Of a stretch of 64,000 bases of DNA, positions 65 to 18,090 are shown in pieces. Position numbers and translations under genes: made by a program. The notes beneath the pieces were generated by a model. That model saw only the letters and a list, made by a program, of their open reading frames with translations. It had not been told where the DNA came from and did no database searches. This DNA is from an uncultured Bacilli bacterium (lineage in GTDB: Bacteria > Bacillota_I > Bacilli_A > RFN20 > CAG-826). Where the stretch lies: positions 29,402-93,401 of the forward strand of contig CALVUF010000007.1 in the NCBI GenBank assembly GCA_944363525.1, in the 5' to 3' direction. Position 1 is the stretch's first letter, and each line of letters begins with the position of its first letter.

Positions 65-856
65 TTAATCCTTTTTGCTTGTTGTTCTTAAATAGATGTC
101 GTAATAGGGGTACTTTTCTTTTTGCTTCTTATGCAAGCGATAAAACCTTTGTCTGAAAACGAATTTAGGCGTTATCTTCTTGATCGCGGCTTTAAGTTTT
201 TGCTTGAATCCGACTTTATTTGCCGGATCGCCGTTTTTCATCCAATTTCCGGCGCAATAATGGATTGAGTAACCGCCTTTCTTTGAGAAATCGAATATCG
301 ATTTGGGTGAGTCGAAATAGGTCATTGGGTATATGTCTATTCCGTTGCTTAGATGGGCTTCCTTGCCGTTAAGTCTGAAGTCTGGGTAGGCATCAAGGAA
401 ATACTTGGTCACCCATTCGTTGCTGACGCGGGTCTCTTTTGTCTTTTCATAGTCAGATTCCAGAAAGTGGAGCAAGTCTAAAACGTTTTTATTGCCCTTT
501 TCGGCTCCGAAGATAGCTATCTGCAGTGATGAATCGACGATATAGGAGAGGAAGAAATGTGAAGTAAGCAAATCGTCGAATGATTTTAAGGCTTCTACAT
601 CGGTGTCGATGTATACCCCTCCATAGGTATAAACCAAATAGAGACGATACCAATCGCTGATGAATCCATACTTCTTATTTCGTTTTAGATCCTCAACAAA
701 AGGGATGCCTTTGCCAAAATCTTTTAGATCGTCGTCTCCCCAGACTTTGATTTCCCAATCGGGCATCTTTTTCTTCCAACCTTCGACGAATTGTTTTTGG
801 TCGGCTGGCATTTCGTTATTGCCCAGCCATATGGCGTGGATTATTTTCGGTATCAT
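65..856 (-). CDS. Glycosyltransferase family 32 (DXD sugar-binding, capsule synthesis)
   Basis: MIPKIIHAIWLG N-terminus and SDWYRL...YGGVYIDTDVE (DXD) motif; ATG at 856 preceded by GGAG, preferred to the ORF-track start 880. Confidence 0.9.
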   Translation of the reverse strand: MIPKIIHAIWLGNNEMPADQKQFVEGWKKKMPDWEIKVWGDDDLKDFGKGIPFVEDLKRNKKYGFISDWYRLYLVYTYGGVYIDTDVEALKSFDDLLTSHFFLSYIVDSSLQIAIFGAEKGNKNVLDLLHFLESDYEKTKETRVSNEWVTKYFLDAYPDFRLNGKEAHLSNGIDIYPMTYFDSPKSIFDFSKKGGYSIHYCAGNWMKNGDPANKVGFKQKLKAAIKKITPKFVFRQRFYRLHKKQKEKYPYYDIYLRTTSKKD

Positions 857-1187
857 GATGGTCTCCGTTGACCGACACATTATGCATTTCCTATAGGACG
901 TATGGAATGCTGGGTCGAAAAAAGACGATGATAAAATTTCCCCATTGGTCCAATTATTGGAATATGGCTATCGATAAGTTGCCCTGGATGCGAAAGGTTG
1001 CTGGGCCCAGAAAATCGTATTTTGGTTGGGGGGATTTGAATGGTGACATACGGCAAGCCGAATAAGCGTGGGGCAATCTTCGTTATGAGGAGGGCGTGCC
1101 TTATCCGTTTCACCGTGCTATGATTGTCCGGCCCAAGGGCCATCCTTGGTTATAACGTCAATTTATATCTAACTGAATCAGAATCAA

Positions 1188-2198
1188 ATGAAGCGTCATT
1201 TCTTCGGAAGCATCTTGCTTCTGTTCCCGTTGTTCTCAGCCGGTTGCTCATCGGATAATTTCGTCATGATTTTCTCGGGGGCCGAGGATGAACGCAACGC
1301 CTACCTATACCAGCGTTTATACGAGCGATTCCCCAACTACGAAATCATCATTCAATCGGTTGGATCGGGAACCGTGTTCACCAAATTGGCCAATGAGGGC
1401 GTTCGTTCCGACTGCGACATCTTCTATGACCTTGATATAACCAATGCCGCCCAGTTGAATTCGATGGAAGACGATGGCCACAAGGTCTTGGCTAATCTTT
1501 CGTCCCTAGAATTCACCCCCCCCTCTTACGATTCGTCCGTAACGAGCCTGACCGGAATCGAGGATAACTTCCTAGTTAATTGCAAAACCGACCTTGTTTT
1601 CATCGTTAACCACGAAGTTTTGGAAGAAAACAACTTGCCGGTTCCGAGCAGTTTTGCTGATTTAACTAATCCCGTCTATCGGGGTTATATCCAAATGCCC
1701 AACCCACAATCCAGTGGGACGGGGTATGGTTTTTATAACGGCATGGCCTCCCTATATGGCAAGGAAGCCGCTCTTTCTTATTTCCGGGAGTTCGGACCAA
1801 ACGTCACCGAATTCACTTCCTCTGGCTCAGTTCCATTAAAATCCTTGGACCGGGGAGAGATCGGCATCGCTATTGGGATGCTTTGGCAGGGTTATCAATA
1901 CGAATTGAAGAATCCTGACCTGGAGGTGATCATCCCGGAAGAGGGGTGCCCTTATAACCTGTTTACCATGGGGATGGTCGATACCCATGAGTTACGTCCG
2001 GCGGCTTTTGACGTTTTCCGCTTCCTCGTCGAGGAACTCAATTACGATCAGACTCTCCGCTTCACCTCCGACGTTATTTATGAAAACCAAGGGGCTTCTC
2101 TTACCGAAGGATATCCGACCGATGTTAAGGAAATCCCGATGAAGGGGCTAAAGGACCCCGCCTACAAGAAGGACCTATTGGATTCCTGGGAGTTTTAA
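1188..2198 (+). CDS. ABC transporter substrate-binding lipoprotein (Fe3+/2-aminoethylphosphonate/polyamine-type family)
   Basis: Lipobox-like SAGC; MPNPQSSGTGY motif typical of this SBP class; first gene of an ABC operon. Confidence 0.85.
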   Translation: MKRHFFGSILLLFPLFSAGCSSDNFVMIFSGAEDERNAYLYQRLYERFPNYEIIIQSVGSGTVFTKLANEGVRSDCDIFYDLDITNAAQLNSMEDDGHKVLANLSSLEFTPPSYDSSVTSLTGIEDNFLVNCKTDLVFIVNHEVLEENNLPVPSSFADLTNPVYRGYIQMPNPQSSGTGYGFYNGMASLYGKEAALSYFREFGPNVTEFTSSGSVPLKSLDRGEIGIAIGMLWQGYQYELKNPDLEVIIPEEGCPYNLFTMGMVDTHELRPAAFDVFRFLVEELNYDQTLRFTSDVIYENQGASLTEGYPTDVKEIPMKGLKDPAYKKDLLDSWEF

Positions 2199-2200
2199 CT

Positions 2201-2956
2201 ATGGAAAGCATCGTCAAAGTCGAATCCTTGCTGAAGAAGTTTGGCAATAAGGTGGTATTGAATTCCGTCTCCTTCGATATCAAGCAAGGGGAATTCTTCT
2301 CAATCCTTGGCCCCTCGGGCTGCGGCAAGACCACTTTGCTCCGTTGCCTAATCGGCATCGAGCGTCCCGAAAGCGGATCCATCGCGAAAAACGGCGTCGA
2401 TATCACCAATGCCAATCCAAAGGATAGGGGGATGGGCATCGTCTTCCAAAATTACGCCCTCTTCCCGAACATGACGGTCTACCAAAACATCGCCTACGCC
2501 TTGAAAGCCCGGAAACTTGACAAGGAAACGATCGATCGGAAGGTTCGCCAAATCATCGACGACGTCGGCTTAAGCGACCATATCAACAAGAAACCCCGGC
2601 AACTATCCGGCGGCCAGCAGCAACGGGTCGCCATCGCCCGGACCTTGGTATTGAGGCCGGATCTCGTCTTGTTCGACGAACCGATGTCGGCCTTAGATAG
2701 CGACATCCGGATGCAATTACGGGCCTTGATCAAGCAAGTCCAGCAGAAGCGGGGCATCTCGATGGTTTACATCACCCATGACCAGGAAGAGGCTTTCTCT
2801 TTGTCCGACCGGATCATGGTCATGAACAACGGGAACATCTTGCAAATCGGGACGCCGAAGGAGATATACAACCATCCGGCGACTGATTTCGTTAAGAGTT
2901 TCGTCGTCAATAATTTGAATGAGAAGGTCCGCCTGATCAAGGAGAGCATCCAATGA
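2201..2956 (+). CDS. ABC transporter ATP-binding subunit (PotA/FbpC/PhnT-like, short C-terminus)
   Basis: Walker A GPSGCGKT, signature LSGGQQQR, Walker B LVLFDEP, H-loop ITHD. Confidence 0.95.
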   Translation: MESIVKVESLLKKFGNKVVLNSVSFDIKQGEFFSILGPSGCGKTTLLRCLIGIERPESGSIAKNGVDITNANPKDRGMGIVFQNYALFPNMTVYQNIAYALKARKLDKETIDRKVRQIIDDVGLSDHINKKPRQLSGGQQQRVAIARTLVLRPDLVLFDEPMSALDSDIRMQLRALIKQVQQKRGISMVYITHDQEEAFSLSDRIMVMNNGNILQIGTPKEIYNHPATDFVKSFVVNNLNEKVRLIKESIQ

Positions 2957-5532
2957 CTGCCAAAGCCGAGCTGCGCCATTTTGGCCAGCAATCGGGCCAT
3001 TTCCTTAAGAAGGAATGGGGCCGGCTGCTGATCGTGGTCCTGATGGCCGTCTTCGCCTTAGCCCCTTTATTGGCAATGCTTTTTTCTTTGTCGGCCGACG
3101 ATTTCGTCTACATGTTCGCCGACCATCGATTCTACCAATCGATCGGCTTCTCCTTGCTCTATAGTTCGGTCGCGGCCGTCGTCTCGGTGGGGCTGTCCTT
3201 ATTGATTGCCTTTTTGCTGGACCGTTCGCATCTAAAACATAAGAAGGTCTTCGTTTTGCTTTTGACCTTGCCGATGCTCGTTCCCTCGATTTCTATCGGC
3301 TTGGGTTTCCGGACCTTTTTAGGGACTTCCGGTTTCCTTGATCAGATAACTGGGTTGGAGACCTCGGCGACTGGTTTGGGGTCATTGATTCTATCTTCCA
3401 TCGTCTTATCCTTCCCGACTTCCTTTTTGATTGTCTACGACGCCTTCCATTATGAGGATAAGTCGGTTTATGACGCGGCCAGGACGCTCGGCATCTCGCC
3501 CATCAGCCAGTTCTTCTCCATCACCATCCCTTCCTTGAAAGGGGCCATCATCTCCTCTTTCTTCGCTTCTTTATCGCTGATCTTCTCCGACTATGGCTTA
3601 CCGATGGAGGTGGCCGGCACCATCCAAACCCTCCCGATCTATTTATATGAACAGGTCAACTCGACCTTCGAGTATGGTCGGGCAGCCATCGTCGGGCTGT
3701 TCTTGCTGTTGCCCGCCATCGCCTCTTTCATCGTCGATATCTTCGTTAAGGAAAGCGCCTCCGAGGAATCCTCCGCCGGCAATATGGAGAAGAGCAAACT
3801 ATTCGACGGGATTACTTTAGCCTCAATCATCGTCTTCTCCTTGTTGCTGTTTATCCCTCAACTCTCCTTCATCGCCTTGGCTTTTATTAAGTCTTTCCCC
3901 AACAATATGGCCTTCACCTGGGATAACTTCTCGGGCCTATTCAAATCCAGTTCGGGGCCGGGCATCAGCCGTTATGTCATCAATTCCTTGGAGATGTCGT
4001 TGCTGGTGGGGGCCATCGGGACGGCTTTGGCCTATCTGACCGCCTATTTCACCAGCCGGGTCCCGGGGAAACTCGGCAAGGGGATTCACTTTATCTCCGT
4101 TTCCTCGATTGCCATCCCCGGCATCGTCTTAGGGGTGGGCTATATCCTGATGTTCAAAGGGACCCATGGGTTCTTTTATGGGACGATGGCGATCTTGGTA
4201 GTGGTCAACGTCATCCACTTCTTCGGCTCCCCTTATCTGATGGCCAAGGATTCCTTATCGAAGATGAATAAGGAATATGAGAACGTCGGGTCGACGTTGG
4301 GCTTATCCAAGCCCCGGATCTTCTTCCGGGTCCTTATCCCCAACAGCATCCCCACCTTAATTGAGATGTTCTCCTATTTCTTTCTCAACTCGATGGTCAC
4401 CATCTCCGCCGTCTCTTTCCTATGCCGTTATGTCAATCAGCCTTTAGCGGTCCTGATCACCAATTATGAGAAGACTGGGAACTATGCGATGCAGGCGGTC
4501 ATCTCCTTCGTTATCTTCGGAATCAACGTGATAGCCAAATGCTTATTCACCGGGGTGTCCTCGGTCTTGGCCCGGTTAACGGGCAAGACCCCGCGGACCT
4601 CCCCATCCTTAAGCCGGATTGAGTTCAATTATTTAGCCTATCTTGAGGCCCATAGCCGGCTTCCTTATGACGAGCATCTTCTTTCAAATAATCTCAAAAT
4701 CTCGGTTTCGGCCTTAAGCCGGTTGACCAAGGATTTAGGGGAAAGGAACCTCTTGCAGATCGATAGCAACGGCAATGTCTCGATCACCGAAATGGGGTTA
4801 AAAGAACTGGAGCCCTATCGGGTTAAGCGGGCCATTATTTTGGCCGCTGGGTTTGGTTCTCGGATGGCCCCAGTTACCTTGGACACGCCGAAACCTTTGG
4901 TTAAGGTTCATGGCAAGCGGATCATCGAGCCTCTGCTGGATGCTTTATACGCCAAGGGGATAACCGATATCGTCTTGGTCCGGGGGTATAAGAAGGATCA
5001 GTTCGATTGCCTGAAGGAGAAGTATCCGACGATTACTTTCCTAGACAACACCGAATTCAACGTCACCAACAACATCTCCTCCTTGATGCGGTGCATCGAT
5101 TATGTTGATCGGTGCTACATCCTGGAAGCTGACCTTTTGATCTCCAATCCTAATCTAATTCGAAAATACGAGTATGAGACCAGTTATATGGGGGCGAAGG
5201 TGGTCGAGACCGATGACTGGTGCTTCGACGTCAAGAAAGGGCGGATTGTCAATTACCGGATGGGTGGGGATGATTGCTATCAGGCCTATGGTATCTCCTT
5301 CTGGAATGAGGAGGATTCGGAAAAGCTCCGGATCTATATCCCGAAACTCTATTACTCCCATGCTGGCAAGGAGAACTTCTGGGATGGGTGCATCTTCCGG
5401 GCGTATAAGAATAAGTTCAAGATCGCCCTCCATAGCTGCACCAAATCCGATATCGTGGAGATCGATAATTTCAGCGAATTGGTGGCCTTGGATGATTCTT
5501 ATGCCAATTATCCGCGGCACGAGGAGTACTGA
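2953..5532 (+). CDS. Fusion protein: double ABC permease + winged HTH + LicC/PntC-like cytidylyltransferase
   Basis: aa ~1-545 hydrophobic with two EAA-like loops (YDAARTLG, YENVGSTLG); aa ~550-620 MarR-like wHTH; then RAIILAAGFGSRMAPVTLDTPKPL NTP-transferase motif and terminal EIDNFSEL. Confidence 0.85.
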   Translation: MTAKAELRHFGQQSGHFLKKEWGRLLIVVLMAVFALAPLLAMLFSLSADDFVYMFADHRFYQSIGFSLLYSSVAAVVSVGLSLLIAFLLDRSHLKHKKVFVLLLTLPMLVPSISIGLGFRTFLGTSGFLDQITGLETSATGLGSLILSSIVLSFPTSFLIVYDAFHYEDKSVYDAARTLGISPISQFFSITIPSLKGAIISSFFASLSLIFSDYGLPMEVAGTIQTLPIYLYEQVNSTFEYGRAAIVGLFLLLPAIASFIVDIFVKESASEESSAGNMEKSKLFDGITLASIIVFSLLLFIPQLSFIALAFIKSFPNNMAFTWDNFSGLFKSSSGPGISRYVINSLEMSLLVGAIGTALAYLTAYFTSRVPGKLGKGIHFISVSSIAIPGIVLGVGYILMFKGTHGFFYGTMAILVVVNVIHFFGSPYLMAKDSLSKMNKEYENVGSTLGLSKPRIFFRVLIPNSIPTLIEMFSYFFLNSMVTISAVSFLCRYVNQPLAVLITNYEKTGNYAMQAVISFVIFGINVIAKCLFTGVSSVLARLTGKTPRTSPSLSRIEFNYLAYLEAHSRLPYDEHLLSNNLKISVSALSRLTKDLGERNLLQIDSNGNVSITEMGLKELEPYRVKRAIILAAGFGSRMAPVTLDTPKPLVKVHGKRIIEPLLDALYAKGITDIVLVRGYKKDQFDCLKEKYPTITFLDNTEFNVTNNISSLMRCIDYVDRCYILEADLLISNPNLIRKYEYETSYMGAKVVETDDWCFDVKKGRIVNYRMGGDDCYQAYGISFWNEEDSEKLRIYIPKLYYSHAGKENFWDGCIFRAYKNKFKIALHSCTKSDIVEIDNFSELVALDDSYANYPRHEEY

Positions 5533-5562
5533 TAAGTTTACTAAACAAAAGGAGGGCGCATT

Positions 5563-6444
5563 GTGAAAGGTTCAAAACAGGTTTTGTCGAATTCCGGGAA
5601 GGACTATTACCTCAGTGATGAGGAGATGGACAAGCTCCGAACCGTAGAACTGGAGATATTGGCGGATACCTATGCCGCTTGCCGGAAAAGGAATATCCCT
5701 CTTTATTTAACCTATGGCACATTACTGGGGGCGGTACGCCACCATGGTTATATCCCTTGGGACGATGATGTCGATATCGCCGCCCATTATTCTGATTTCC
5801 CCAAAATCATCGAAGCGGTCAAGGAAGAGTTTCCGGATAAATACGATTTTGCCGGCTTGCCCGTCAACTATAAGACCAACGCTTTTTATGGCTTGAAGAT
5901 CATGAAGAAAGGGACGGAAGCAATCGAAATGCCCTCAGAGAATTGCCCCCGTCCGTTAGGGATATTCATCGACATCTTTGCCATCTTTAAGGTATCGGAT
6001 AACCCGAAGAAGCGATTGAAAGATTTCAAACGATTTGATTTCTGGGTTCACGTTGGAGCTTTGGCTTTTGAATACCGGCACAAGCCGAAGGTGGTGTTTG
6101 AACTGAGCCCCGAATCGAAGAAGTATTATCGGATGCGTCGCCTCTTCGGCTTTATCTGCAATCCCTTTTACGTTCATTCCCGGAAGGCATTATTAAAGCT
6201 ATATACGAAATATGAGGATCAGGGCACAGGCTGCTATGCGGTTGATTATCTAGCGGGGATGAAGGGACAGACAATCGGCGAGAAAGAAATAACGTCTATC
6301 TCCGAATACGAGTTTGCTGGCCACAAGTTCACCTCGTTTGAGAATTACGACTTCATCCTGAAGCTCTTATACGGCCCGACCTATATGGAACTGCCGCCGG
6401 TGGAGCAGCGGGAACGGCATATGATGATCAAAATTAAGGCTTAA
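5563..6444 (+). CDS. licD: LicD family phosphotransferase
   Basis: GTLLGAVRHHGYIPWDDDVDI, IFIDIF and YGPTYMELPP motifs; SD AAGGAGG before GTG. Confidence 0.92.
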   Translation: MKGSKQVLSNSGKDYYLSDEEMDKLRTVELEILADTYAACRKRNIPLYLTYGTLLGAVRHHGYIPWDDDVDIAAHYSDFPKIIEAVKEEFPDKYDFAGLPVNYKTNAFYGLKIMKKGTEAIEMPSENCPRPLGIFIDIFAIFKVSDNPKKRLKDFKRFDFWVHVGALAFEYRHKPKVVFELSPESKKYYRMRRLFGFICNPFYVHSRKALLKLYTKYEDQGTGCYAVDYLAGMKGQTIGEKEITSISEYEFAGHKFTSFENYDFILKLLYGPTYMELPPVEQRERHMMIKIKA

Positions 6445-7300
6445 TCAAACGATCACCAAAGGATATTTCCGAGACGTAGTGGTGGGGTATCCGTTCTTCT
6501 TCCGGCGGATATTCCATATAGTTGCCGTATAGATACTTCAGCGTGGCATCCGGATTAGCTGGAGCCTTGGCTTGCCGACCTTCGAATTCCACGATTGATT
6601 CCCCTTCGAATAGTTCAGCCGGAGCAATCTGGAATATGACATCGCTGGCGTTAACCCAGCCAGTGGATTCAAAGGCGTGTTTCTTTATCGATTTGTTTCT
6701 TATCGCCGTGGCTTTTTCCCGGGAGCACCAAAAGAAAGCCGCTCGAGATAAAAATCTAGCAATCTTGCCGATAATCGGATGATTGGGTTTTATTCCGGGA
6801 ACGGGAAGGAATTGCTTCGGCAAGCATTTGGCGTTCAGCATGTATAAATAAGCTTTTCTAGTTAGATATTTGAACTTTTTGCTTGGGGAAGGGAAGCTGA
6901 CGACGGGGAATATATCGATGAATATCCCTTTGGCCATGTCACAACGTTGTTTGACGTATTCTTCGTAGATAGTTCCGTCTTTCATCAGCTTCGCGAAGCT
7001 TTGCCAGCAACGGGAATCTTTTTCCCGGCAATCGAGGTGAAAACCGTTCTCGTCTTGGTATTCGCCGATGAACCGATAATAGTCCTCGGCCGGCATACAG
7101 ACATCGAGGTCATCATCCCAAGGGATGAAACCTTTGTGTCGGACTGCGCCAAGCAATGTTCCCCATCCTAATTGGTATCGAAGATTATGTTTTTGACAAA
7201 AATCGACGAAATGGTCGAATATTTCTAATTGAATATCTTTCAGTTTTTCGCGTTGTTCTTCGGTTAGTTTCAAGCAGGGTTTGATTTGTATTTCACTCAT
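6434..7300 (-). CDS. licD: LicD family phosphotransferase (second copy, convergent)
   Basis: GTLLGAVRHKGFIPWDDDLDV, IFIDIFP and YGNYMEYPP motifs. Confidence 0.92.
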   Translation of the reverse strand: MSEIQIKPCLKLTEEQREKLKDIQLEIFDHFVDFCQKHNLRYQLGWGTLLGAVRHKGFIPWDDDLDVCMPAEDYYRFIGEYQDENGFHLDCREKDSRCWQSFAKLMKDGTIYEEYVKQRCDMAKGIFIDIFPVVSFPSPSKKFKYLTRKAYLYMLNAKCLPKQFLPVPGIKPNHPIIGKIARFLSRAAFFWCSREKATAIRNKSIKKHAFESTGWVNASDVIFQIAPAELFEGESIVEFEGRQAKAPANPDATLKYLYGNYMEYPPEEERIPHHYVSEISFGDRLIKP

Positions 7301-7340
7301 AGCAACCTCCGTTTGCCGTGCTTCGTTGTTGATGCGGGTA

Positions 7341-8219
7341 TCAAGGTTTCGTCGCCATTATTACCTTCTCTATGATGTTTTGGTCTACGTCTATGTCAAA
7401 TTTTCTGGCAATGAATTTACCGCAGCTCATCAATTCACCAAAATCGGTTTCCGTGAATACCTTAGGACTTGACGATTTTTTTGGGGGGAAGACGGCATAG
7501 GTAATGCCTGGCAAAAATGAATCTTTAAATTTTGGGTTCGTCCAAAGCAAAGTTTGAAAGAAACACTCGTCTGGTACGAGCTTATTTTTGAAGAAATTCA
7601 AAAATTCCGGATGGCTATGCAAATAGTCCAATATGTAGGTCACCGCTTCACGATTATAGGCGAACCATTGATAACCAAACCGGAACGCATGTTCCTTATA
7701 AAAACGCGAGATCAAGAACGGGAAAGTATGTTTTCGCCCCCCTGTTAGATATTTCCAAATATTCCTAAGAAAATACGCCGACCCTTTGCTGGCGCGCATG
7801 CATTGGAAATAGGGAACCTGATTTCGTTTGTTGAATAGCTTCGAACTCGGCATTAAGGTATTGAAGTTGGCGTTTCTATTTTCAGACAGCGTTTGATAAA
7901 GATCCGTTGATTTTTTGATCAGCAAGTCCTGGCCGCTGCAAAGCACATAAAAGAAGTAATTGCTTTTGGCTGACGCTTTCAGAAGTTGTATTGTAGCGAG
8001 TACTAAGGTAATGTCGCCCCAGTTGGTCAAAATTCTTTGGCTGTCGGGCAAAATCACAACGTTCCTCTTATTGAGCAACTTAAGTTCGCCAGAAGAAAAC
8101 TCAAATTTCTTGTCGAAGTGAATGTATATATCGAATAGGTCGTCTTGAAATTGATCGATGAATCTGCCTACTTGAAGAATACTTTTATGTGCAAGTATTA
8201 ATATTGCAATCTTTTCCAT
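7341..8219 (-). CDS. Glycosyltransferase family 14 (core-2/I-branching-like)
   Basis: IAILILAH, IYIHFD, WG, SGQD, QW, PDECFFQT and FIARKF motifs. Confidence 0.88.
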   Translation of the reverse strand: MEKIAILILAHKSILQVGRFIDQFQDDLFDIYIHFDKKFEFSSGELKLLNKRNVVILPDSQRILTNWGDITLVLATIQLLKASAKSNYFFYVLCSGQDLLIKKSTDLYQTLSENRNANFNTLMPSSKLFNKRNQVPYFQCMRASKGSAYFLRNIWKYLTGGRKHTFPFLISRFYKEHAFRFGYQWFAYNREAVTYILDYLHSHPEFLNFFKNKLVPDECFFQTLLWTNPKFKDSFLPGITYAVFPPKKSSSPKVFTETDFGELMSCGKFIARKFDIDVDQNIIEKVIMATKP

Positions 8220-8325
8220 TGACTAATTGTAAATATGACACTCTCTAAATTCAACATGCCGATGAATATTGATTTTTCCTAGAATTATGACTTTTGGATA
8301 TGGGGAATGTTATGATAATAAAGCT

Positions 8326-9168
8326 ATGAATTATTCTGTGCTTATGTCAGTCTATTCGAAAGAAAACCCTGGCTTTTTGAAAACCGCTTTGAATAGCATT
8401 TTAAATCAGACTTTGTCGACAAACGATTTTGTCATTGTTCGCGATGGTTCCTTGCCCGATTCCCTAAACGAAGTTTTGAACGAGGCAGTTAAAAAATATC
8501 CCGAGATTGTCCATGTTTATGGATACGAGAAAAATGAGGGCCTCGGGTATGCGTTGAATTTTGGATTGCCTTATTGCCGAAACGATATTGTGTTAAGGAT
8601 GGACTCCGATGATTTCTCGTTTCCGAATCGAGCCGAAATCCAGGTCGAAAAATTCGTTGAAGATGGGGTGGATTTGTCATCTTCTCAGATTTTATTGTTC
8701 GACTCGGATCCATATAAAAGTATTGGTGAACGGGTTGTGCCTTTGACTGCCGAAGAAATCAAACGTTTTTCTCAGTCCCGTTCGCCTTTCAATCATCCTT
8801 CGGTCATTTTCAGCAAAGCAAAAGTCATGGAAGCTGGTGGCTATAAACCACTCCTATATAAGGAAGATTATTTTCTGTGGATTAGGATGATTCAGAAAGG
8901 GTGCAAGGTGAATAACATCCCAGACCCCGTTGTAGCGATGAGAATTAATCCAGAAACTTTCTTCAAACGTAAGAACAAAAGTGTTTATCAGAGCGGCAAA
9001 TGGCTGAATCGTTATATGCTTAAAACCAAATACATAGGGCGTATAAGATATATAAAGAACGGCATGATTAATTTTATGCGATATCACCTACCAAATTGGC
9101 TTGTCTCGAAAATTACTAAAAGATATTGGAGCGGAAGCAAGGATCAATCGGATCCCAATCCCCAGTAA
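8326..9168 (+). CDS. Glycosyltransferase family 2 (AmsE-like)
   Basis: YSVLMSVY..E, RMDSDD, SPFNHPSV and EDYFLW motifs; ATG 8326 chosen from the adjacent -10 box. Confidence 0.9.
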   Translation: MNYSVLMSVYSKENPGFLKTALNSILNQTLSTNDFVIVRDGSLPDSLNEVLNEAVKKYPEIVHVYGYEKNEGLGYALNFGLPYCRNDIVLRMDSDDFSFPNRAEIQVEKFVEDGVDLSSSQILLFDSDPYKSIGERVVPLTAEEIKRFSQSRSPFNHPSVIFSKAKVMEAGGYKPLLYKEDYFLWIRMIQKGCKVNNIPDPVVAMRINPETFFKRKNKSVYQSGKWLNRYMLKTKYIGRIRYIKNGMINFMRYHLPNWLVSKITKRYWSGSKDQSDPNPQ

Positions 9169-9281
9169 TCGAGTCTTTATCAACCTTCGGAGGTAATGGC
9201 GGATCATCCCTACGTGCTTTGCAAACTTCGACTCTTCCCGAAACCCGCCATCGAACCTGGGGGAAGCGATTTGCTGTCAAA

Positions 9282-10577
9282 CTACTTTGGCAACGTTTGA
9301 ACGTCATCCGCCGCATTTAATTCTTTTTGGTTATTAACTTTGATTGAAGTGAGTAGATTCAGGAATTTTTGCGATTGCTCGTCTATGGAGAAGCATGTTT
9401 TAGCGGTTTCGAATTGACGTTGATACACTTTCGGGTCTTCTTTGCCGTTAAGTATATTGCTTATAAGTTTTTCCAGGTCCTCTTTCGAATCAGCAATGTA
9501 GCAAGACGACGTTTCCTCAAAAAATGAAATGCATCCGGAGTTCTTATTTCCATAGGCTATGACTGGTTTTCCGAATGCCAGCGAATCCCCAACTTTAGTT
9601 GATAAAGAGTATTCGGTATAGGGGAGATATTTATCGCTTAAGCTTTCTACGATCAATAGCGCACCGGCTTGTTCCATTGTTTTTAATACTTTCGCATAAG
9701 GAATAGCGGGGTGGAGACACAAGTTTCCAGTTTGGTCTTCTTTGCTAATATCTTTTGAATAAATATGGACTTTTATAGGACTGTTTAGATTTCCCAGGAT
9801 ATTGGCAACGTCTTTAAGTGAATCCAGTCTTCCGGCTTCAAGGTTTCCAAAGAAATACCAATCTTTAGTTAAATCAATGCCTTGGCACGGCTTTGGCTTG
9901 ATGTCAGAGGATATGTATATAACGGTACTGGGGCATTGGTATTTCTCTTGATACTTCATTTGTATCTTATTCGATTCAAAGATAAGGATTGGGTTGGTGT
10001 CCATGAACTTATCAACCGTTTGAAGATACTTTTTCATATAGAGTCTATTAAGCCATTGCCCTTTATGGTGCTCGCTGAAAACGTAGTCATCGTATACACA
10101 GCCGATTAGGGGAATCTGGTACTTTCTGGAGAAATGCAAAGCTATATCAAAAACAAAGAAATCAGGCGAAAAAACCATAAAAACATAGTCTGGTTTTAAA
10201 TCATCCACAAACTTTTCCAATTCTGGCGTATCCCAATACTTTTTGCGCCAAATCAATTTTCTAAGAAATCTATATAATGGTGTTTTATGTTTTGGCCTGT
10301 ATGTATTTATTGAGTTTTCGGCGCTGTCCGGCAAATCCTCCCATTTGAATGTTTGCCCGGTTTTAATGCTTCTCTTGAATCTTTTCTTCACCAACCGGAA
10401 ATCCGTGATTTGGAACAGGGTTGCGCAGTTTCCTTTTGAAGGGGTTCTGGCGTCTGAAAAGATCTGCGCCAAATTCTCCTTGTCAAATTGATGGAAATAC
10501 GAATCCATGGAACGAGATTGCTCGTTCTTGTTGTATGGCTGTGGGGCGACGATGAGTATTTTGGGCTTATTTTGCAT
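9282..10577 (-). CDS. Putative GT-B glycosyltransferase
   Basis: C-terminal LLIVES...YSLSTKVGDSLAFGKPVIAYG resembles a GT4-type donor-binding segment; polysaccharide locus context. Confidence 0.7.
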   Translation of the reverse strand: MQNKPKILIVAPQPYNKNEQSRSMDSYFHQFDKENLAQIFSDARTPSKGNCATLFQITDFRLVKKRFKRSIKTGQTFKWEDLPDSAENSINTYRPKHKTPLYRFLRKLIWRKKYWDTPELEKFVDDLKPDYVFMVFSPDFFVFDIALHFSRKYQIPLIGCVYDDYVFSEHHKGQWLNRLYMKKYLQTVDKFMDTNPILIFESNKIQMKYQEKYQCPSTVIYISSDIKPKPCQGIDLTKDWYFFGNLEAGRLDSLKDVANILGNLNSPIKVHIYSKDISKEDQTGNLCLHPAIPYAKVLKTMEQAGALLIVESLSDKYLPYTEYSLSTKVGDSLAFGKPVIAYGNKNSGCISFFEETSSCYIADSKEDLEKLISNILNGKEDPKVYQRQFETAKTCFSIDEQSQKFLNLLTSIKVNNQKELNAADDVQTLPK

Positions 10578-10630
10578 TTTCTTTCTTTGATTTTGACTTT
10601 TGGTGACTTGCTTTTATTAGTATAATAAAA

Positions 10631-11161
10631 ATGATGGTTTTACGAGACAAAATTCAAGGATTAAGGAATAAACCTGTAAGTTTGTCAAAACTTGCAGGAA
10701 AAGGAATTAAGCGTTTTTCGACGGTGCTTGCTGTGCTTTGCGTTGCGATCCTTGTTGTTTCTTTTGCAACGATGTTTAATTCGGTTGATGTTAGTTTTGG
10801 CAACGTTGGCATTGTTGGCACTTATGTCGCTTATATTAACGATGAGCGCTATCGTTCCGTTTCTTTCCATTCCAACAATGTTTGCTATATAACTAACTAC
10901 GCCGATATGGACGGGAATGTTTTTCCGGAGCCAACGACTGTTGGGCGGAGATGGAGACTTGCGTATGAGTCCAAGTTCTTCTCCTACCAATCAGATTTTT
11001 ACGTTACTTCGCCTTTTGTTGTTGCGTTAAATACTTTGGATGCTCCGGACGGCAGCGCAAGCATTGAGACCTTTTTCTTTATAAAGGACACCCCTTCATT
11101 GTACTCGCGCCCAACCGACTACGACCGTCCAGAAAAACAATTTAGGTACGCTAAGCAATGA
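10631..11161 (+). CDS. Hypothetical membrane-anchored protein
   Basis: 176-aa ORF with one hydrophobic helix; overlaps the next gene by 4 nt (ATGA). Confidence 0.6.
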   Translation: MMVLRDKIQGLRNKPVSLSKLAGKGIKRFSTVLAVLCVAILVVSFATMFNSVDVSFGNVGIVGTYVAYINDERYRSVSFHSNNVCYITNYADMDGNVFPEPTTVGRRWRLAYESKFFSYQSDFYVTSPFVVALNTLDAPDGSASIETFFFIKDTPSLYSRPTDYDRPEKQFRYAKQ

Positions 11162-12399
11162 CCATTTTGAAAAAAATAAATAAGGTTTCTGTAAGTTGTG
11201 CTCTTTATTATTTAGGAATTTTTGTTATTGGCCTGGGGTGTACAAACCTCTTTTCACTCCAAGGCTACTTGCTTCTAGTCGGGACTGTTATAGTGGCCGC
11301 TTCTGCTATTTTGGATGGCGGTTTGCAATTTAACCGAAAATATATCGTACTCGTTTTATTTTGCATTTCCTTTTTCGCATTCAGTTTTATTTCTGGCGAA
11401 GACCGAACGGTTAGAAACCTTCTCTACAACTTTTGTTACTATGTCTTTATGCCGGTTGTTTTATCTGCTGTCTTTTTTCAAAGATCGCACGATAGAAACG
11501 CAAAAAAGGCGACAATTTGGTCGATAGCTAGTGGCTTCGCTATTGGAGGTTGGCTTTTAATCGTTTCTACTTATTTATATGCTGGGAATGATTTTGACAG
11601 CGTTATCGTAAGTTTTTGGGATAATCACAGTATTTCAAGGACCGGTATTCAATTATATTTTGTTCCTCTGTTCGCTTTGTCGTTTTCTTGGTTCTTGAAT
11701 GTCAAGCGTTGTAATGGCCTACGATACTGGTTCGTTTTTGTTGCACTTATGCTATATGATGCATTTGTATTTTATTATTCGCTTGAAATCGGTAATCGTG
11801 CGATTTTTGTGTCGATCGCTGCCGTAATTGTTTTCTTTTTCCTGCTATTGGTTTCAAAGCTCCGCAGCAACAAAATTAAACTTGCCATTATTGTTATTTG
11901 CATTTTGATGATCCTCTTGATTGTCGGAATGACGCTAGGCATTTTGCCGATGCCTGATTTTTTAGCGAATATACCTGTGATAAAAAGATTTTTGGCAGGG
12001 GGATCTAATAGTCAACGGGTCAAGCTATATATGCAGTTCTTTGCCAATTTTTGGAGGTATCCTTTTGGCGGAACATATCATGTGATTGAAGACAGATATG
12101 TTCATAATTTTATTTTGGACATATATACTTTCGGTGGCATTATACCTTTCGCCTTGTTTCTTATTCTGCTTGTTTGGTATCTGTGTGGGCTTAAGTCCGC
12201 TGAAGCAAAATACACACTAGGTTATGACGGGCTTTTCCTATTTGTTGGCATTTTTACTATCGGCATGTTTGAGCCGCTTTTTGAAGCTAATGCATTTTAC
12301 ATTCCTATAGTTTGTTTGTTGTTTGAAGACATTTTTGCTCTCACCAAAGAACCCGTGAGTGTTCGTTCTATAAAAATCAAACGAAGCTATCGAATATAA
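11158..12399 (+). CDS. Putative polysaccharide polymerase (Wzy/O-antigen ligase-like)
   Basis: About 11-12 hydrophobic segments; SNSQR...PFGG...HNFILD pattern; located among glycosyltransferases. Confidence 0.75.
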   Translation: MTILKKINKVSVSCALYYLGIFVIGLGCTNLFSLQGYLLLVGTVIVAASAILDGGLQFNRKYIVLVLFCISFFAFSFISGEDRTVRNLLYNFCYYVFMPVVLSAVFFQRSHDRNAKKATIWSIASGFAIGGWLLIVSTYLYAGNDFDSVIVSFWDNHSISRTGIQLYFVPLFALSFSWFLNVKRCNGLRYWFVFVALMLYDAFVFYYSLEIGNRAIFVSIAAVIVFFFLLLVSKLRSNKIKLAIIVICILMILLIVGMTLGILPMPDFLANIPVIKRFLAGGSNSQRVKLYMQFFANFWRYPFGGTYHVIEDRYVHNFILDIYTFGGIIPFALFLILLVWYLCGLKSAEAKYTLGYDGLFLFVGIFTIGMFEPLFEANAFYIPIVCLLFEDIFALTKEPVSVRSIKIKRSYRI

Positions 12400-12417
12400 T
12401 TTAATTGGAGAAATTTA

Positions 12418-13551
12418 ATGCTTGTAATCTTGGTGACGAACAGCGTTCTTATTCATCAGTATTTTCTTTGCAAAGCCCTTGCAGAAGAACCAGACATTGA
12501 TTTTAAATTGATTGTTTCAGAGCCTCCAGCCAATTTGAATAATCAAAAGGCCAGACTTTTTGGTAATTCCTTGAATTTTAATTTTGATATTATTCGTTCG
12601 TATGATAGCAATGTCGAAAGAACTCGTGCGATAGAACTTATAAAGCAAGCCGATATATGTATCGTCGGCGCCGAAGATCACTCGTTGCTAAAGGGCGTTA
12701 AGCGCCCCTTTTTCCGTTATAGCGAACACTTCAATAAAAAGAACCACTGGTACTTGCATCCTAAAACATTTTTAAGGTCCCCTAAGATTTATTGCAGATA
12801 CCATAACGAGCAACAAGGCTCATATCTTCTATGCGCTTCCTACTACGCTAAACGTGATTTTAATTTGTGCGGTCTTTACCGTAATCATTGCCTTAAGTTT
12901 GGGTATTTTCCCCAAGGGAATATCGGGAATCATTTGCCTAGCAAAAAGTTCCCGATCAACAAACTGGACGAGCTTAAGATTGTCTTTGTGGGCCGGTCAA
13001 TCAATTGGAAACATCCAGATATTTCTTTTTATGCTTTAAGGAAGTTACGGTCACAAGGCGTTAATTGCACTTTGACTTTTGTGTCGCTTCCATCGAAACT
13101 TCGGGAACGGATTTTCAATAAGTATAAGCAGGAAATAGATGATGGATTGGTTAAGATATATGACGAACTTCCACCCAAAGACATTATGTCTATTTTCGCC
13201 GAGTCTCATCTGTTTATCTTCTCCAGTGATCAAGGCGAAGGATTTGGCGCCACGCTTTATGAGGCCATGACATCTAAGGTTGCCGTTATTGCCAACGCTA
13301 AAGCTGGCGCCACTAACCTTTTGGTAAAAGATGGAGAGAATGGCTTTGTTTATAAAACCAAGAGGCAGCTAGACAGGATTTTGGATAATATTGCCAAGAA
13401 TCCTTCAATGTTAGAGAAAGTGGCCAGTGGGGCAAAGAAGTTCACCGAAGAGAAATATAACGCCAAGGTTGCGGCTCATAATTTAGTTGAGTTCGTCAAG
13501 TCGGGGTATACCAAATCCTTCCCCGATGACGAACCGATTTCGAAACTTTGA
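12418..13551 (+). CDS. Glycosyltransferase family 4
   Basis: FVGR..WKH, EGFGATLYEAM (EX7E) and DGENGF motifs. Confidence 0.88.
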   Translation: MLVILVTNSVLIHQYFLCKALAEEPDIDFKLIVSEPPANLNNQKARLFGNSLNFNFDIIRSYDSNVERTRAIELIKQADICIVGAEDHSLLKGVKRPFFRYSEHFNKKNHWYLHPKTFLRSPKIYCRYHNEQQGSYLLCASYYAKRDFNLCGLYRNHCLKFGYFPQGNIGNHLPSKKFPINKLDELKIVFVGRSINWKHPDISFYALRKLRSQGVNCTLTFVSLPSKLRERIFNKYKQEIDDGLVKIYDELPPKDIMSIFAESHLFIFSSDQGEGFGATLYEAMTSKVAVIANAKAGATNLLVKDGENGFVYKTKRQLDRILDNIAKNPSMLEKVASGAKKFTEEKYNAKVAAHNLVEFVKSGYTKSFPDDEPISKL

Positions 13552-13553
13552 TT

Positions 13554-14732
13554 ATGAAAACAATTATTCAATTTAATGGAACTTTATTTGGATCGACCGG
13601 AGCGATCTTAAAGAACATAGCAAACGGTCTTTCGGCCGAATTCCGTTTTTATGACGTGACTCCCGATTCAACGTCCGAGCACGGGTTTTGCTTAACCGGG
13701 TCGTATTTGGGCCGCCAATGGCAAAAAGTGCTTTGCCAGATAAATGGAAGCGATGGTTTCCACTCAAAATTAACGACCAAATCCCTTCTGAGATGGCTAG
13801 ATGAAATAAAGCCGGACCTCTTTCATTTCCATAATATTCATGGCTATTACTGTAATCTGCCTCTGTTGGTTGGTTATGCAGTTAGTCATAAGATCCCAAT
13901 CGTTTATACGCTTCATGATGCCTGGACCTTTACTGGCCGCTGCGGATATTTTGATGTCGCCCACTGCGACAAATGGCTATTTGGATGCGGGCATTGCCCG
14001 GCCAAATGGCAATATCCCAAGGCTCGTTTATTCGATACCTCGGCCAAGCAATGGAAACTGAAAAGGGAAATCCTTACCGGTAAAGGCATTACTTTCATTG
14101 CCCCTTCTGAGTGGCTGGCCCGTTTCGCTAAGCAGTCCTATTTAGTCGATGAAGACATCCGGGTCATAAACAATGGTATCGATACCGGTATATTCAACGC
14201 CGATGGCGATTCCTATAAATTCGGTGAAGGGATGGACGATAAAAAGATCATCCTTTCGGTTGCCTACCCATTCGGTCCCAATAAAGGCTTGAATGACCTG
14301 AACGCCTTGCAAGGAAAGATCGACACTTCCAAGTACCAAATCGTGGCTGTTGGCGTTACCAATGAGGATAAGACAGTTCCTGGTATTCGCCGCATTGCCC
14401 CGACTAAAGATAAAAGCCTATTGGCTTCTTTATATCGTCGGGCAGACGCTTTTGCTTTCTTCACCCATCAGGACAATTACCCGACGGTGCTATTGGAGGC
14501 TTTATCCTGTGGTTGCCCAGTCATCACTTATGATGTTGGTGGATGCGGGGAAATAGTCGAAGACGGGCGGACTGGTTATCTAATTAAGGAAAACGATATT
14601 GACGGGGCGCTTAAGGCTTTAGACAAGATTGATTCGATCGATCGAAAAACCTGCCGGGAAGAGGGGCAAAATCACTCGATACCGGCGTTCGTGGAAGAAT
14701 ATCGGAAACTTTACGAAGAAAAGCTGAAGTGA
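13554..14732 (+). CDS. Glycosyltransferase family 4 (WcaC-like)
   Basis: HFHNIHG, TLHDAWTFTGRC...C..GC..CP Cys cluster, DNYPTVLLEALSCGCPV. Confidence 0.88.
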   Translation: MKTIIQFNGTLFGSTGAILKNIANGLSAEFRFYDVTPDSTSEHGFCLTGSYLGRQWQKVLCQINGSDGFHSKLTTKSLLRWLDEIKPDLFHFHNIHGYYCNLPLLVGYAVSHKIPIVYTLHDAWTFTGRCGYFDVAHCDKWLFGCGHCPAKWQYPKARLFDTSAKQWKLKREILTGKGITFIAPSEWLARFAKQSYLVDEDIRVINNGIDTGIFNADGDSYKFGEGMDDKKIILSVAYPFGPNKGLNDLNALQGKIDTSKYQIVAVGVTNEDKTVPGIRRIAPTKDKSLLASLYRRADAFAFFTHQDNYPTVLLEALSCGCPVITYDVGGCGEIVEDGRTGYLIKENDIDGALKALDKIDSIDRKTCREEGQNHSIPAFVEEYRKLYEEKLK

Positions 14733-15860
14733 TTACTTTCGCCACGTCGTCATATTAACGATATTGGCATAGCTTTGGATGATTCGGACCACTCTAATCG
14801 AAGTATTGGTTACTTGGTAAGCCTCTGACAATGGCAAAGGCTCGTGGTTGTTATGCATAGCAATCGCTAGTTCAGTAGCTTTTAGCACGTCCTCTTTGTC
14901 GATGCCGCCAACGACGATTGATCCGGCGTCCAAACCTTCGGGGCGTTCGGTGGAGGTTCTGATCAAGACCCCGGGGAATTGCTCGATGGCTGACTCCTCG
15001 GTAAGCGTGCCGGAGTCAGATAAGACGCATAAGGCATTCTTCTCTAACTTAACGTATTCGAATAAGCCAAAGGGTTTGAGGTTTTGGACTAGGGGATGGA
15101 ACTTGAAGTTCCGTTTCTCAATGAATTTCCGGCTTCGTGGATGGGTGGAATAGATAACCGGGACTTGATACTTCTCGGCGATGGCATTGATGCTCTCCAT
15201 CAATTCGAAGAAGTTCTTCTCGATATCGATGTTCTCTTCCCGGTGGGCGGATACCACGATGTATTTGTTCTTTTCTAGCCCTAACTGTTCAAGGACGTTG
15301 CTGTTATCGATCTTATCCTGATATTTATCCAATACCTCTTTCATCGGGGAACCGGTGACAAAGATGGTTTTGCCATCGATCCCTTCTTGAAGCAAATACC
15401 TCCTCGCATTCTCGGTATAGGGCAAGTTGATGTCGGCGATATGGTCAACGATGGTCCGATTGGTCATCTCGGCCACGTTCCAATCCCAGCAACGATTGCC
15501 CGCTTCCATATGGAAGATGGGGGTCTTCAACCGTTTGGCGGCGATGGCCGAGAGGGCACTGTTGGTGTCGCCCAATACTAAGACGGCATCCGGTTTCTCC
15601 TGTTGGATTAAGGCATAGGATTTGGCGATGACGTTGCCCATGGTTTCACCAAGGGTTGAGCCAGCGCAGTCGAGGTAATAATCGGGGGCCCTTAAGCCAA
15701 GTTCATCGAAGAAGACCTGGTTTAACTCATAGTCATAGTTCTGACCGGTATGGACCAGGATATGATCAAAGTACTTATCGCAGGCTTTGATGGTTTCGCA
15801 AAGACGGATGATCTCGGGTCTAGTGCCCAGAATCGTCATTAACTTCAGCTTATTGGCCAT
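14733..15860 (-). CDS. fnlC: UDP-sugar 2-epimerase FnlC (Cap5G/WbjD-type)
   Basis: GTRPEIIRL, HTGQNYD, LGDTNS, HMEAGNR, SDSGT and TERPEG motifs; third gene of the fnlABC cluster. Confidence 0.88.
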   Translation of the reverse strand: MANKLKLMTILGTRPEIIRLCETIKACDKYFDHILVHTGQNYDYELNQVFFDELGLRAPDYYLDCAGSTLGETMGNVIAKSYALIQQEKPDAVLVLGDTNSALSAIAAKRLKTPIFHMEAGNRCWDWNVAEMTNRTIVDHIADINLPYTENARRYLLQEGIDGKTIFVTGSPMKEVLDKYQDKIDNSNVLEQLGLEKNKYIVVSAHREENIDIEKNFFELMESINAIAEKYQVPVIYSTHPRSRKFIEKRNFKFHPLVQNLKPFGLFEYVKLEKNALCVLSDSGTLTEESAIEQFPGVLIRTSTERPEGLDAGSIVVGGIDKEDVLKATELAIAMHNNHEPLPLSEAYQVTNTSIRVVRIIQSYANIVNMTTWRK

Positions 15861-15866
15861 ATTGGT

Positions 15867-17991: not shown

Positions 17992-18090
17992 GTTGAGTTT
18001 GTTGCTCCTATTGGATTGGCGTTGATACTATACTCAATTATCAATCTAAAAGGAACATAAGGGGTTGGGCTAGCCTTGTTTAACCTAAAT

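Follow-up and report, generated by a model that had tools for sequence, protein, structure and literature searches.

Phosphocholine and phosphonate decorations shape the encounter of bacteria with host immunity through C-reactive protein, natural antibodies and adhesion, and they have so far been explained either by choline uptake followed by a kinase or by de novo synthesis of carbon-phosphorus (C-P) bonds. The Lic pathway of Streptococcus pneumoniae and Haemophilus influenzae comprises the choline permease LicB, the kinase LicA, the cytidylyltransferase LicC and the LicD transferases. Here, a locus is described from a 64,000-nucleotide (nt) stretch of DNA of an uncultured Bacilli bacterium (contig CALVUF010000007.1; the whole stretch is called the window below). 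In a module at positions 1188-7300, the permease of an ATP-binding cassette (ABC) importer runs in one frame into a winged helix-turn-helix (wHTH) and a LicC-type domain, and two genes of the LicD family stand beside it. Sequence comparison and structural models suggest that this module is probably a kinase-less variant of the Lic/Pnt surface-decoration pathway.

In the scheme that is proposed, a binding-protein-dependent ABC importer would take up a small amine head group that already bears a phosphate or phosphonate. The wHTH and LicC-type domain on the cytoplasmic C-terminus of the permease would then combine it with cytidine triphosphate (CTP) into a cytidine mono- or diphosphate (CMP/CDP) conjugate, from which two LicD phosphotransferases would pass the head group to the repeat unit of a Wzx/Wzy polysaccharide or to a glycolipid.

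Architecture and conservation of the importer-LicC fusion

Open reading frames (ORFs) of the window were scanned with Pfam and NCBIfam. Architecture, conservation and folds are computed, and from them the substrate, the activity, the acceptor and the coupling of transport to activation are inferred. The first gene (1188..2198, + strand) encodes a solute-binding lipoprotein (SBP) of 336 amino acids (aa), which belongs to the organophosph(on)ate-binder subfamily of SBP_bac_6 (Pfam, 57.8 bits) and whose N-terminus (...LFSAGC) resembles a lipobox. After a gap of 2 nt comes an ABC ATPase of 251 aa, consisting of the nucleotide-binding domain only (2201..2956, +; ABC_tran, 128 bits), which overlaps by 4 nt with the gene for the fused protein (2953-5532, +; 859 aa in one open frame). 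This protein combines a double permease with two BPD_transp_1 stretches and 12 predicted helices (residues 1-552; 2953..4608), a wHTH linker delimited by homologue profile and predicted structure (residues 553-622; 4609..4818) and the LicC-type cytidylyltransferase domain (residues 623-859; 4819..5532), in which the NTP_transferase match lies from residues 627-684 on. The first LicD-family phosphotransferase gene (LicD1; 5563..6444, +; 293 aa) follows after 30 nt as the last of the operon, and the second (LicD 2; 6434..7300, -; 288 aa) converges on it, their 3' ends overlapping by 11 nt; both proteins (105.3 and 129.2 bits) clear the Pfam LicD cut-off of 22.6. The sequence-only reading had placed the ORFs, the SBP-ATPase-permease operon, the in-frame continuation of an 859-aa permease into an NTP-transferase and both LicD genes in the same way, and the ORF list, Pfam and NCBIfam bear it out. 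With an SBP, an ABC ATPase and two BPD_transp_1 domains in one operon, the transporter is a type I binding-protein-dependent importer.

Residues 25-543 of the permease match PhnU2 of NCBIfam with 325.5 bits (cut-off 593.25), compared with only 57 bits for ThiP. A hydropathy scan placed 12 membrane helices between residues 25 and 533, with both EAA loops and both permease termini on the inner side that is rich in Lys and Arg, and the last 326 residues are therefore predicted to be cytoplasmic. The wHTH is less evident from one sequence: in the window's own sequence alone it stays below all Pfam cut-offs (best HVO_A0261_N, 19 bits). Nevertheless, a profile of 21 homologous linkers matches wHTH regulators of the PDB, namely CggR (best E value 4e-6), ScaR, MarR and BirA, as well as an archaeal riboflavin kinase. 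The homologues themselves match MarR_2 (16/21) and HTH_24 (14/21), and in the AlphaFold model (predicted local distance difference test score, pLDDT, 91.5; predicted template-modelling score, pTM, 0.88) the linker is arranged as H-H-H-beta-beta-H, three helices and a beta wing. Residues 553-622 in this model form a wHTH fold, as had been noticed earlier between permease and enzyme from the letters alone, and DNA binding is putative.

The enzyme domain is recognized by Pfam as NTP_transferase (40.6 bits) and NTP_transf_3 (36.7 bits). It aligns over its full length with LicC of S. pneumoniae (Spn-LicC, 1JYK; phmmer E value 9.6e-26) and over the N-terminal part only with Tde-PntC (6PD1; 5.5e-14). 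Its model superposes on 1JYK with a template-modelling (TM) score of 0.91 and a root-mean-square deviation (rmsd) of 2.0 A over 228 columns, and PntC ranks after LicC in this comparison (rmsd 3.5-6 A). The nucleotidyltransferase signature AAGFGSRM aligns to AAGLGTRL of 1JYK. The acidic or metal residues of Spn-LicC, numbered D107, E216 and D218 in the available text of PMC6697681, correspond to D727, E836 and D838, which are kept in all 19 distinct fused domains. Equivalents of D107, W136, W191, D192 and E216 are present in the window's domain, which deviates from Spn-LicC by D105 to Glu (E725), Y190 to Phe, Y85 to Thr and R129 to Lys. By fold and signature, residues 623-859 are a LicC-type cytidylyltransferase whose activity is predicted.

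A wHTH fold between a permease and an enzyme also invites another interpretation, in which the wHTH-LicC part is not an enzyme but a sensor or regulator, either a membrane-tethered transcription factor or a stand-in for an ATPase regulatory domain, its nucleotidyltransferase fold sensing CTP or substrate and thereby gating transport or transcription. The bona fide wHTH fold, the occurrence of enzyme-plus-wHTH regulators (BirA, archaeal riboflavin kinase) among the PDB matches of the profile and an ATPase without the C-terminal regulatory domain of PhnT2/PotA/MalK-type proteins would suit it, whereas the AAGFGSRM signature and the equivalents of the LicC metal ligands are kept in all fused members examined. 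In Clostridia, moreover, a free wHTH-LicC protein stands beside LicD and kinases, where an enzymatic role is the simplest reading. Regulation and catalysis could also go together. A sensor or regulator instead of an enzyme appears very improbable.

The conservation of the fusion was examined in protein and genome collections. A homologue search in 5.8 billion proteins returned 726 relatives, and the best 120 of these, which were inspected, are all 848-875 aa long, carry both PF00528 and PF00483 and share 52-100% identity, so that the combination of BPD_transp_1 and NTP_transferase, for which a domain-architecture search had been recommended, recurs in every one. When species-representative genomes were scanned with the permease part, 22 loci were obtained, with the gene order SBP, ATPase, permease kept in every one. 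Permease, wHTH and LicC occupy a single frame of 847-890 aa in 18 of the 22; in L069 the fused gene is broken by a contig end, L072 has the permease only (LicD was not found in its genome), and L070 and L071 carry a split form, a 535-aa permease followed by an overlapping, separate wHTH-LicC gene of 300 aa. The existence of both fused and split states provides a Rosetta-stone link between the importer and the enzyme functions. According to database labels, the carriers are metagenome-assembled genomes (MAGs) of Bacilli, Anaeroplasma/Mollicutes, Erysipelotrichaceae, Christensenellaceae and Ruminococcaceae from rumen, horse, human and other guts. Within the window's own class, the full fusion was found in the window's genome and 2 others among 300 sampled genomes, and these 2 are also among the 22 loci (identical coordinates). 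Because few fused clusters appeared among 50%-identity representatives searched with a junction fragment, the fusions form one tight family and not many independent events; the notion of the fusion as a rarity gave way to that of a family widespread in gut and rumen metagenomes.

That two genes were joined by a sequencing error or in a chimeric contig might be suspected from a source assembly in 9 contigs and from the split form in L070 and L071. However, the single frame recurs in 18 independent species genomes and in at least 120 protein clusters. Contigs from 4 other runs of 4 studies span 4560-4830, where read mapping had been advised, without any indel, and the substitutions listed for junction and linker are changes at third codon positions. 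An artefact of assembly is thereby refuted as the origin of the fusion.

At source, the relatives are labelled 'iron(III) transport system permease' or 'ABC transporter permease subunit'. A literature search, with subscription journals largely outside its scope so that a description could exist there, found no description of the fusion or of a bacterial phosphocholine importer.

Ligand, kinase inventory and head group

The SBP was modelled with a pLDDT of 91.5. Its closest solved structures are P5PA, AfuA and VcA0625 (TM 0.71-0.79), and iron and thiamine binders rank after them. P5PA is a pyridoxal-phosphate binding protein (PMC8427247), and in AfuA the phosphate is bound by Ser37 and Thr150 and the sugar by His205, Asp206 and Glu229 (as given in the accessible parts of PMC4546632). 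In a HMMER alignment, both phosphate motifs are kept in the SBP (GSGT at 59-62 and QSSGTGY), with S176/G177/T178 invariant in 25/25 aligned SBPs, whereas the sugar triad is replaced by Trp233/Gln234/Asn257. Trp-Gln and Tyr-Asn-Leu-Phe/Tyr motifs are common to the closer orthologues and differ in two PhnS2-like proteobacterial proteins. The AEP (2-aminoethylphosphonate) binders PhnS, AepX and AepS belong to the same Pfam family, PF13343 (PMC8316502, in the text available), and the best NCBIfam match of the SBP is phnS2 (116 bits, cut-off 392.75). Alignment and model together support a small ligand, an organophosphate or organophosphonate, whose other end is not a sugar and may be cationic.

The ATPase has PhnT2 as its best NCBIfam match (343.6 bits, cut-off 457.7), covering only positions 3-241 of a 353-position model. 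It is without the C-terminal regulatory domain usual in PotA/MalK/PhnT-type importers, and the orthologue stretches aligned cover the same core of about 250 residues.

Uptake of a pre-phosphorylated group is suggested by what the genome does and does not hold. In this genome (1.57 Mb, 9 contigs, 94.9% complete) Pfam found no choline kinase or APH protein above cut-off. The sole kinase-fold match is an unlinked APH-fold ORF of 267 aa on another contig, which stays below both Pfam cut-offs (22.6 and 21.5 bits) and whose best NCBIfam matches are thiamine-kinase-like (34 bits). PEP (phosphoenolpyruvate) mutase (PF13714) had no match in the genome, a BCCT transporter and a phosphonatase above cut-off were not found in it either, and no phnW/phnX catabolic neighbours were seen; no search covered LicB, a choline permease of the DMT type. 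Of the context of LicC, neither the LicA kinase nor a BCCT choline transporter is thus found in this 94.9%-complete genome, again with LicB left out of the search. The sequence-only reading had seen no LicA kinase, LicB permease or PEP mutase in the window, which for the kinase and the mutase now extends to the whole genome and for LicB stays as it was. It had also allowed for a choline kinase just outside the window, and none above cut-off is linked. No choline-binding repeat proteins, which would argue for phosphocholine, were found. As for other donor-making enzymes, the NTP_transf_3/CTP_transf_like genes identified in the genome are GlmU, GlgC, CoaD and NadD only, besides one more weak CTP_transf_like match (20.8 bits) in a 335-aa frame. 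From this inventory, no candidate other than the fused domain emerges as the maker of the donor for the two LicD enzymes.

Related genomes point in the same direction. No choline kinase above cut-off was found in 17 of the 22, and among class relatives with an unfused, full-length LicC-like match, a choline kinase above cut-off is present in all 8, within about 3 kb in 6 of them. In L034, an NTP-transferase/choline-kinase protein, LicC and a BCCT transporter lie side by side. A wHTH-LicC unit joined either to a kinase-containing protein or to an importer fits an importer that replaces the kinase as supplier of the phospho-substrate.

The identity of the head group is less clear. Spn-LicC Asp105 and Asp192 have been contrasted with Glu104 and Glu196 of Tde-PntC, where Glu104 contacts the amine of AEP (PMC6697681, in its available text). 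Pocket positions were mapped through the phmmer alignment for the 19 distinct importer-fused domains. Position 105 is Glu in all 19, and position 192 is Asp in 13, including the window's domain, and Glu in 6. The equivalents of Trp136 and Trp191 are kept in all 19, and position 190 varies (10 Phe, 7 Tyr and 2 Leu). The choline pocket of LicC consists of D105 and D192, which come from the text of the paper, and an aromatic box, for whose putative residues a literature search found no source. Four LicC genes of the class that are linked to a kinase share Asp with Spn-LicC at 105 and 192 alike. PEP mutase is present in only 2 of the 300 class genomes, and a Ppm-linked LicC-like homologue of the class has His at position 105. 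Because of this His, positions 105 and 192 do not decide the substrate, and the two-residue LicC/PntC rule was dropped as a substrate label.

In favour of phosphocholine, the enzyme as a whole is close to LicC, both enzyme and SBP have aromatic residues and the nearest relatives are partnered with proteins of the kinase family; AEP or phosphoethanolamine is favoured by Glu105 and the PhnS2/T2/U2-like transporter. As a rough ranking, phosphocholine comes first, at somewhat under an even chance, AEP second, phosphoethanolamine third and any other group last.

The AEP variant, in which a PhnS2T2U2/AepSTU-like importer, a PntC-like activator and LicD-like phosphonyl transferases would allow phosphonoglycans to be displayed by a bacterium unable to form C-P bonds, is a special case of the favoured explanation and is judged rather unlikely as a share of the whole. 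A phosphonate requires no kinase. Since neither PEP mutase nor, above cut-off, a phosphonatase was found in the genome, the cell would not make AEP itself and would not break down the imported compound via PhnX. In NCBIfam, SBP, ATPase and permease each match the putative AEP transporter PhnS2/T2/U2 best, the permease with 325 bits against 57 for ThiP, but the scores are far below the equivalog cut-offs and the SBP differs at specificity positions from the two PhnS2-like proteobacterial proteins aligned. Glu at 105 in 19/19 domains recalls Tde-PntC Glu104, and Glu at 192 in 6/19 recalls Glu196 (PMC6697681, available text), yet the Ppm-linked homologue has His and not Glu at 105, and by structure LicC (TM 0.91, rmsd 2.0 A) is a nearer relative of the enzyme than PntC is, at an rmsd of 3.5-6 A. 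The nearest non-importer relatives (54-59% identity) are fused or adjacent to domains of the choline/ethanolamine-kinase family, which speaks for a phosphate ester. Several carriers are labelled as rumen MAGs and ciliates of the rumen contain much AEP, which counts for this variant.

LicD transferases, acceptor and surrounding locus

The two LicD proteins, about 32% identical to each other, are encoded by the only LicD genes of the genome and show a weak PDB match to FKRP. LicD was found in 14 of the 18 fusion genomes compared with 63 of the 301 genomes of the class sample, and in L053, L058, L070 and L011 it adjoins Wzx and glycosyltransferases. The association of LicD with the fusion is real but not obligate.

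Neither a penicillin-binding transpeptidase (PF00905) nor a Mur ligase (PF08245) was found in the 94.9%-complete genome, and the organism is therefore probably wall-less and Mollicutes-like. Since no peptidoglycan synthesis is apparent, the acceptor would be a capsule-like Wzx/Wzy glycan or a glycolipid and not teichoic acid. It is an observation in its own right that a probably wall-less organism carries a large Wzx/Wzy polysaccharide locus.

For an organism of this kind, the head group might instead be destined for membrane lipids or glycolipids, such as a phosphocholine-glycolipid that resembles GGPL of Mycoplasma fermentans and is made by a LicD-family enzyme of the Mf1 type, and the importer-LicC module would then serve mainly for lipid head-group salvage. 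Diacylglycerol cholinephosphotransferase Mf1 is indeed the sole NCBIfam match of both LicD proteins, although with 72.9 bits (LicD1) and 92.2 bits (LicD 2) it is far under the cut-off of 225. The missing transpeptidase and Mur ligase of a probably Mollicutes-like organism would suit such salvage, and so would the position of LicD outside the 9-kb flanks in 13 of the 22 loci. However, the module lies inside a Wzx/Wzy glycosyltransferase locus, as LicD elsewhere lies by Wzx and glycosyltransferases (the four loci named above), and lipid salvage as the main role is considered improbable.

Several findings weigh against the kinase-less decoration pathway proposed here. Only 9 of the 22 loci have LicD inside their 9-kb flanks, and LicD was not found in 4 of the 18 fusion genomes, which are MAGs whose completeness is not known. 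In the window's own family LicD is present in 15 of the 27 sampled genomes, most of them without the module, and a P0001 match at E <= 1e-20 occurs in only 2 of the same 27 (a fusion in G176 and an unfused LicC-like gene in G124), so that LicD does not need the importer-LicC module. A choline kinase is present in 5 of the 22 related genomes, one of which has it near the locus, inside a separate 895-aa protein. In a genome 94.9% complete, a kinase may have been missed. The pocket, with Glu105, Asp or Glu at 192 and Thr85, is neither clearly LicC-like nor PntC-like, the His of the Ppm-linked homologue blurs position 105 further, and all three transporter parts fall far below the equivalog cut-offs of PhnS2/T2/U2, their best matches. 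The earlier inference that the module scavenges, activates and decorates thus stands in part: uptake of a pre-phosphorylated or phosphonate group, activation without a kinase and transfer by LicD are backed by the split form, the kinase absences, the likeness of the SBP and the cytoplasmic C-terminus, and the scarcity of LicD near the other loci counts against it.

A more speculative extension, which we consider doubtful, is vectorial cytidylylation, in which the tethered enzyme would capture the substrate as the permease releases it, wall-less and other gut bacteria would coat a capsule-like glycan with ready-made phosphocholine or phosphonate and the wHTH would make the protein a substrate-responsive regulator. 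If true, the head group would come from host, diet or protozoa, at the cost of neither a kinase nor C-P synthesis; ABC import through an enzyme-fused transporter would follow a new logic, and there would be a new way to surfaces in the gut that mimic the host.

The module is enclosed by a Wzx/Wzy-type polysaccharide locus (65..19686, by Pfam content), with glycosyltransferases at 65-880, 7341-8219 (Branch), 8269-9168 (GT2), 9282-10577 and 12418-14732, a Wzy_C-like protein at 11158-12399 (24 bits, below cut-off), UDP-sugar modifying enzymes at 14733-17991 and a Polysacc_synt flippase at 18091-19686. The glycosyltransferase at 65-880 (-) has a DXD sugar-binding region and weakly matches, in Pfam (25.2 bits), the catalytic glycosyltransferase domain of TcdA/TcdB, which is a shared fold only, with no toxin architecture. 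Next to the locus, at 20070-25859 (+), a gene encodes a protein of 1929 aa that combines DUF4011 with AAA_11/AAA_12 helicase domains and an MTES_1575 nuclease domain. A GC-rich foreign island was considered for the operon and dropped, its GC content (0.49-0.52) being close to the window mean (0.486); the low-GC part consists of neighbouring glycosyltransferase genes. A scan for promoters and terminators found sites no more numerous than in shuffles.

Contigs of 94-97% identity in three runs (X5, X9 and X10) track the window through the fused gene, and all switch to one same other sequence just after its stop (window 5530-5700). The LicD side of the locus is therefore strain-variable, and the importer-LicC operon is kept. 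Transcription of the fused gene was also considered, and the 94%-identical contig in the RNA library X10 does not show it.

Comparison with known systems

If the kinase-less pathway is true, the uptake of a finished head group and its activation on the transporter itself would be a third route to such decorations, and would explain how reduced, probably wall-less bacteria afford phosphocholine or phosphonate decorations. The iron(III) and ABC permease labels would hide a surface-modification pathway in metagenome surveys. To our knowledge, it is unusual for the membrane subunit of a binding-protein-dependent ABC importer to be fused to a downstream metabolic enzyme, which makes this family a natural test case for substrate channelling.

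Relatives of the wHTH-LicC unit occur in clusters of other kinds. In Massilicoli timonensis (L011:3621-12281), a GT4 glycosyltransferase, LicD, Wzx, an octopine-dehydrogenase-like gene, wHTH-LicC, Amidohydro_3 and an NTP-transferase/choline-kinase fusion are found together. L005, L006, L008, L009, L012 and L013 have a free wHTH-LicC with Amidohydro_3, plus the kinase fusion where the contig reaches. Pocket position 105 is Ala in these free wHTH-LicC clusters, and a cluster of the L011 type may make an unusual, possibly opine-like, amine head group. The 895-aa frames of L058 (12460-15147, -) and L028 have the order wHTH, NTP-transferase, APH/choline-kinase fold, wHTH, LicC, and the 895-aa protein adjoins the importer-LicC fusion, an OCD/mu-crystallin gene and Amidohydro_3. 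Directly beside the importer operon of four loci, L053 (6322-7068), L054 (3629-4330), L055 (6406-7116) and L064 (11560-12252), lies a further LicC paralogue, a free one that is 36-37% identical to the fused domain and has Glu at 105; in the corresponding genomes (G302, G303, G304 and G313) no choline kinase above cut-off was found, and one importer may feed two head groups there.

The wHTH-LicC proteins of Clostridia and Bacilli, such as those of L011 and L058 (895 aa), share with the window's protein the wHTH and LicC-type unit, 47-59% identity in the enzyme and a position by LicD and Wzx. They are either free or fused to an NTP-transferase/choline-kinase protein, whereas here the partner is an importer and no kinase was found in the genome. 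They also sit with Amidohydro_3 and octopine-dehydrogenase/OCD genes, and many have Ala instead of Glu at 105.

On the transport side, the PhnSTUV, PhnS2T2U2 and AepSTU importers share the SBP family PF13343 (PMC8316502, in its available text), and PhnS2T2U2 provides the best NCBIfam match for each of the three parts. Here, however, the equivalog cut-offs of PhnS2T2U2 are reached by none of them (116 vs 392.75, 343.6 vs 457.7 and 325.5 vs 593.25 bits), phnW/phnX neighbours are missing, and import would be coupled to anabolic activation instead of catabolism. AfuABC and P5PA offer the closest solved SBP structures, with the Ser/Thr phosphate motifs kept, and AfuABC has a double-permease architecture of the same kind; in the window the sugar triad of AfuA has become Trp/Gln/Asn, the permease carries an enzyme and the ATPase is cut to its nucleotide-binding domain.

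Like the Pnt pathway (Rice et al. 2019, PMC6697681, as far as its available text describes it), the locus has a LicC-like cytidylyltransferase that would need no kinase and carries the counterpart of Tde-PntC Glu104, and LicD-like transferases lie nearby together with genes for a glycan. In the available text of the same paper, what defines a PntC gene is that it is linked or fused to PEP mutase or AEP biosynthesis, of which there is none here, and any AEP would have to be imported because the genome has no PEP mutase. The fusion partner likewise differs, being the permease in the window and Ppm or an aminotransferase in Pnt.

The Lic pathway, finally, differs in uptake, which here is by an ABC importer with the enzyme covalently joined to the permease through a winged helix, and in its kinase, since no LicA-type kinase or BCCT transporter was found in this genome (LicB was not searched for). 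It also differs in the pocket, where 105 is Glu and not Asp, and in the apparent lack of a cell wall, and hence of teichoic acid, in the present organism. What the two have in common is a LicC-type enzyme (E value 9.6e-26 and TM 0.91 to 1JYK), a pair of LicD genes by glycan genes and the logic of joining CTP to a head group that is then transferred.

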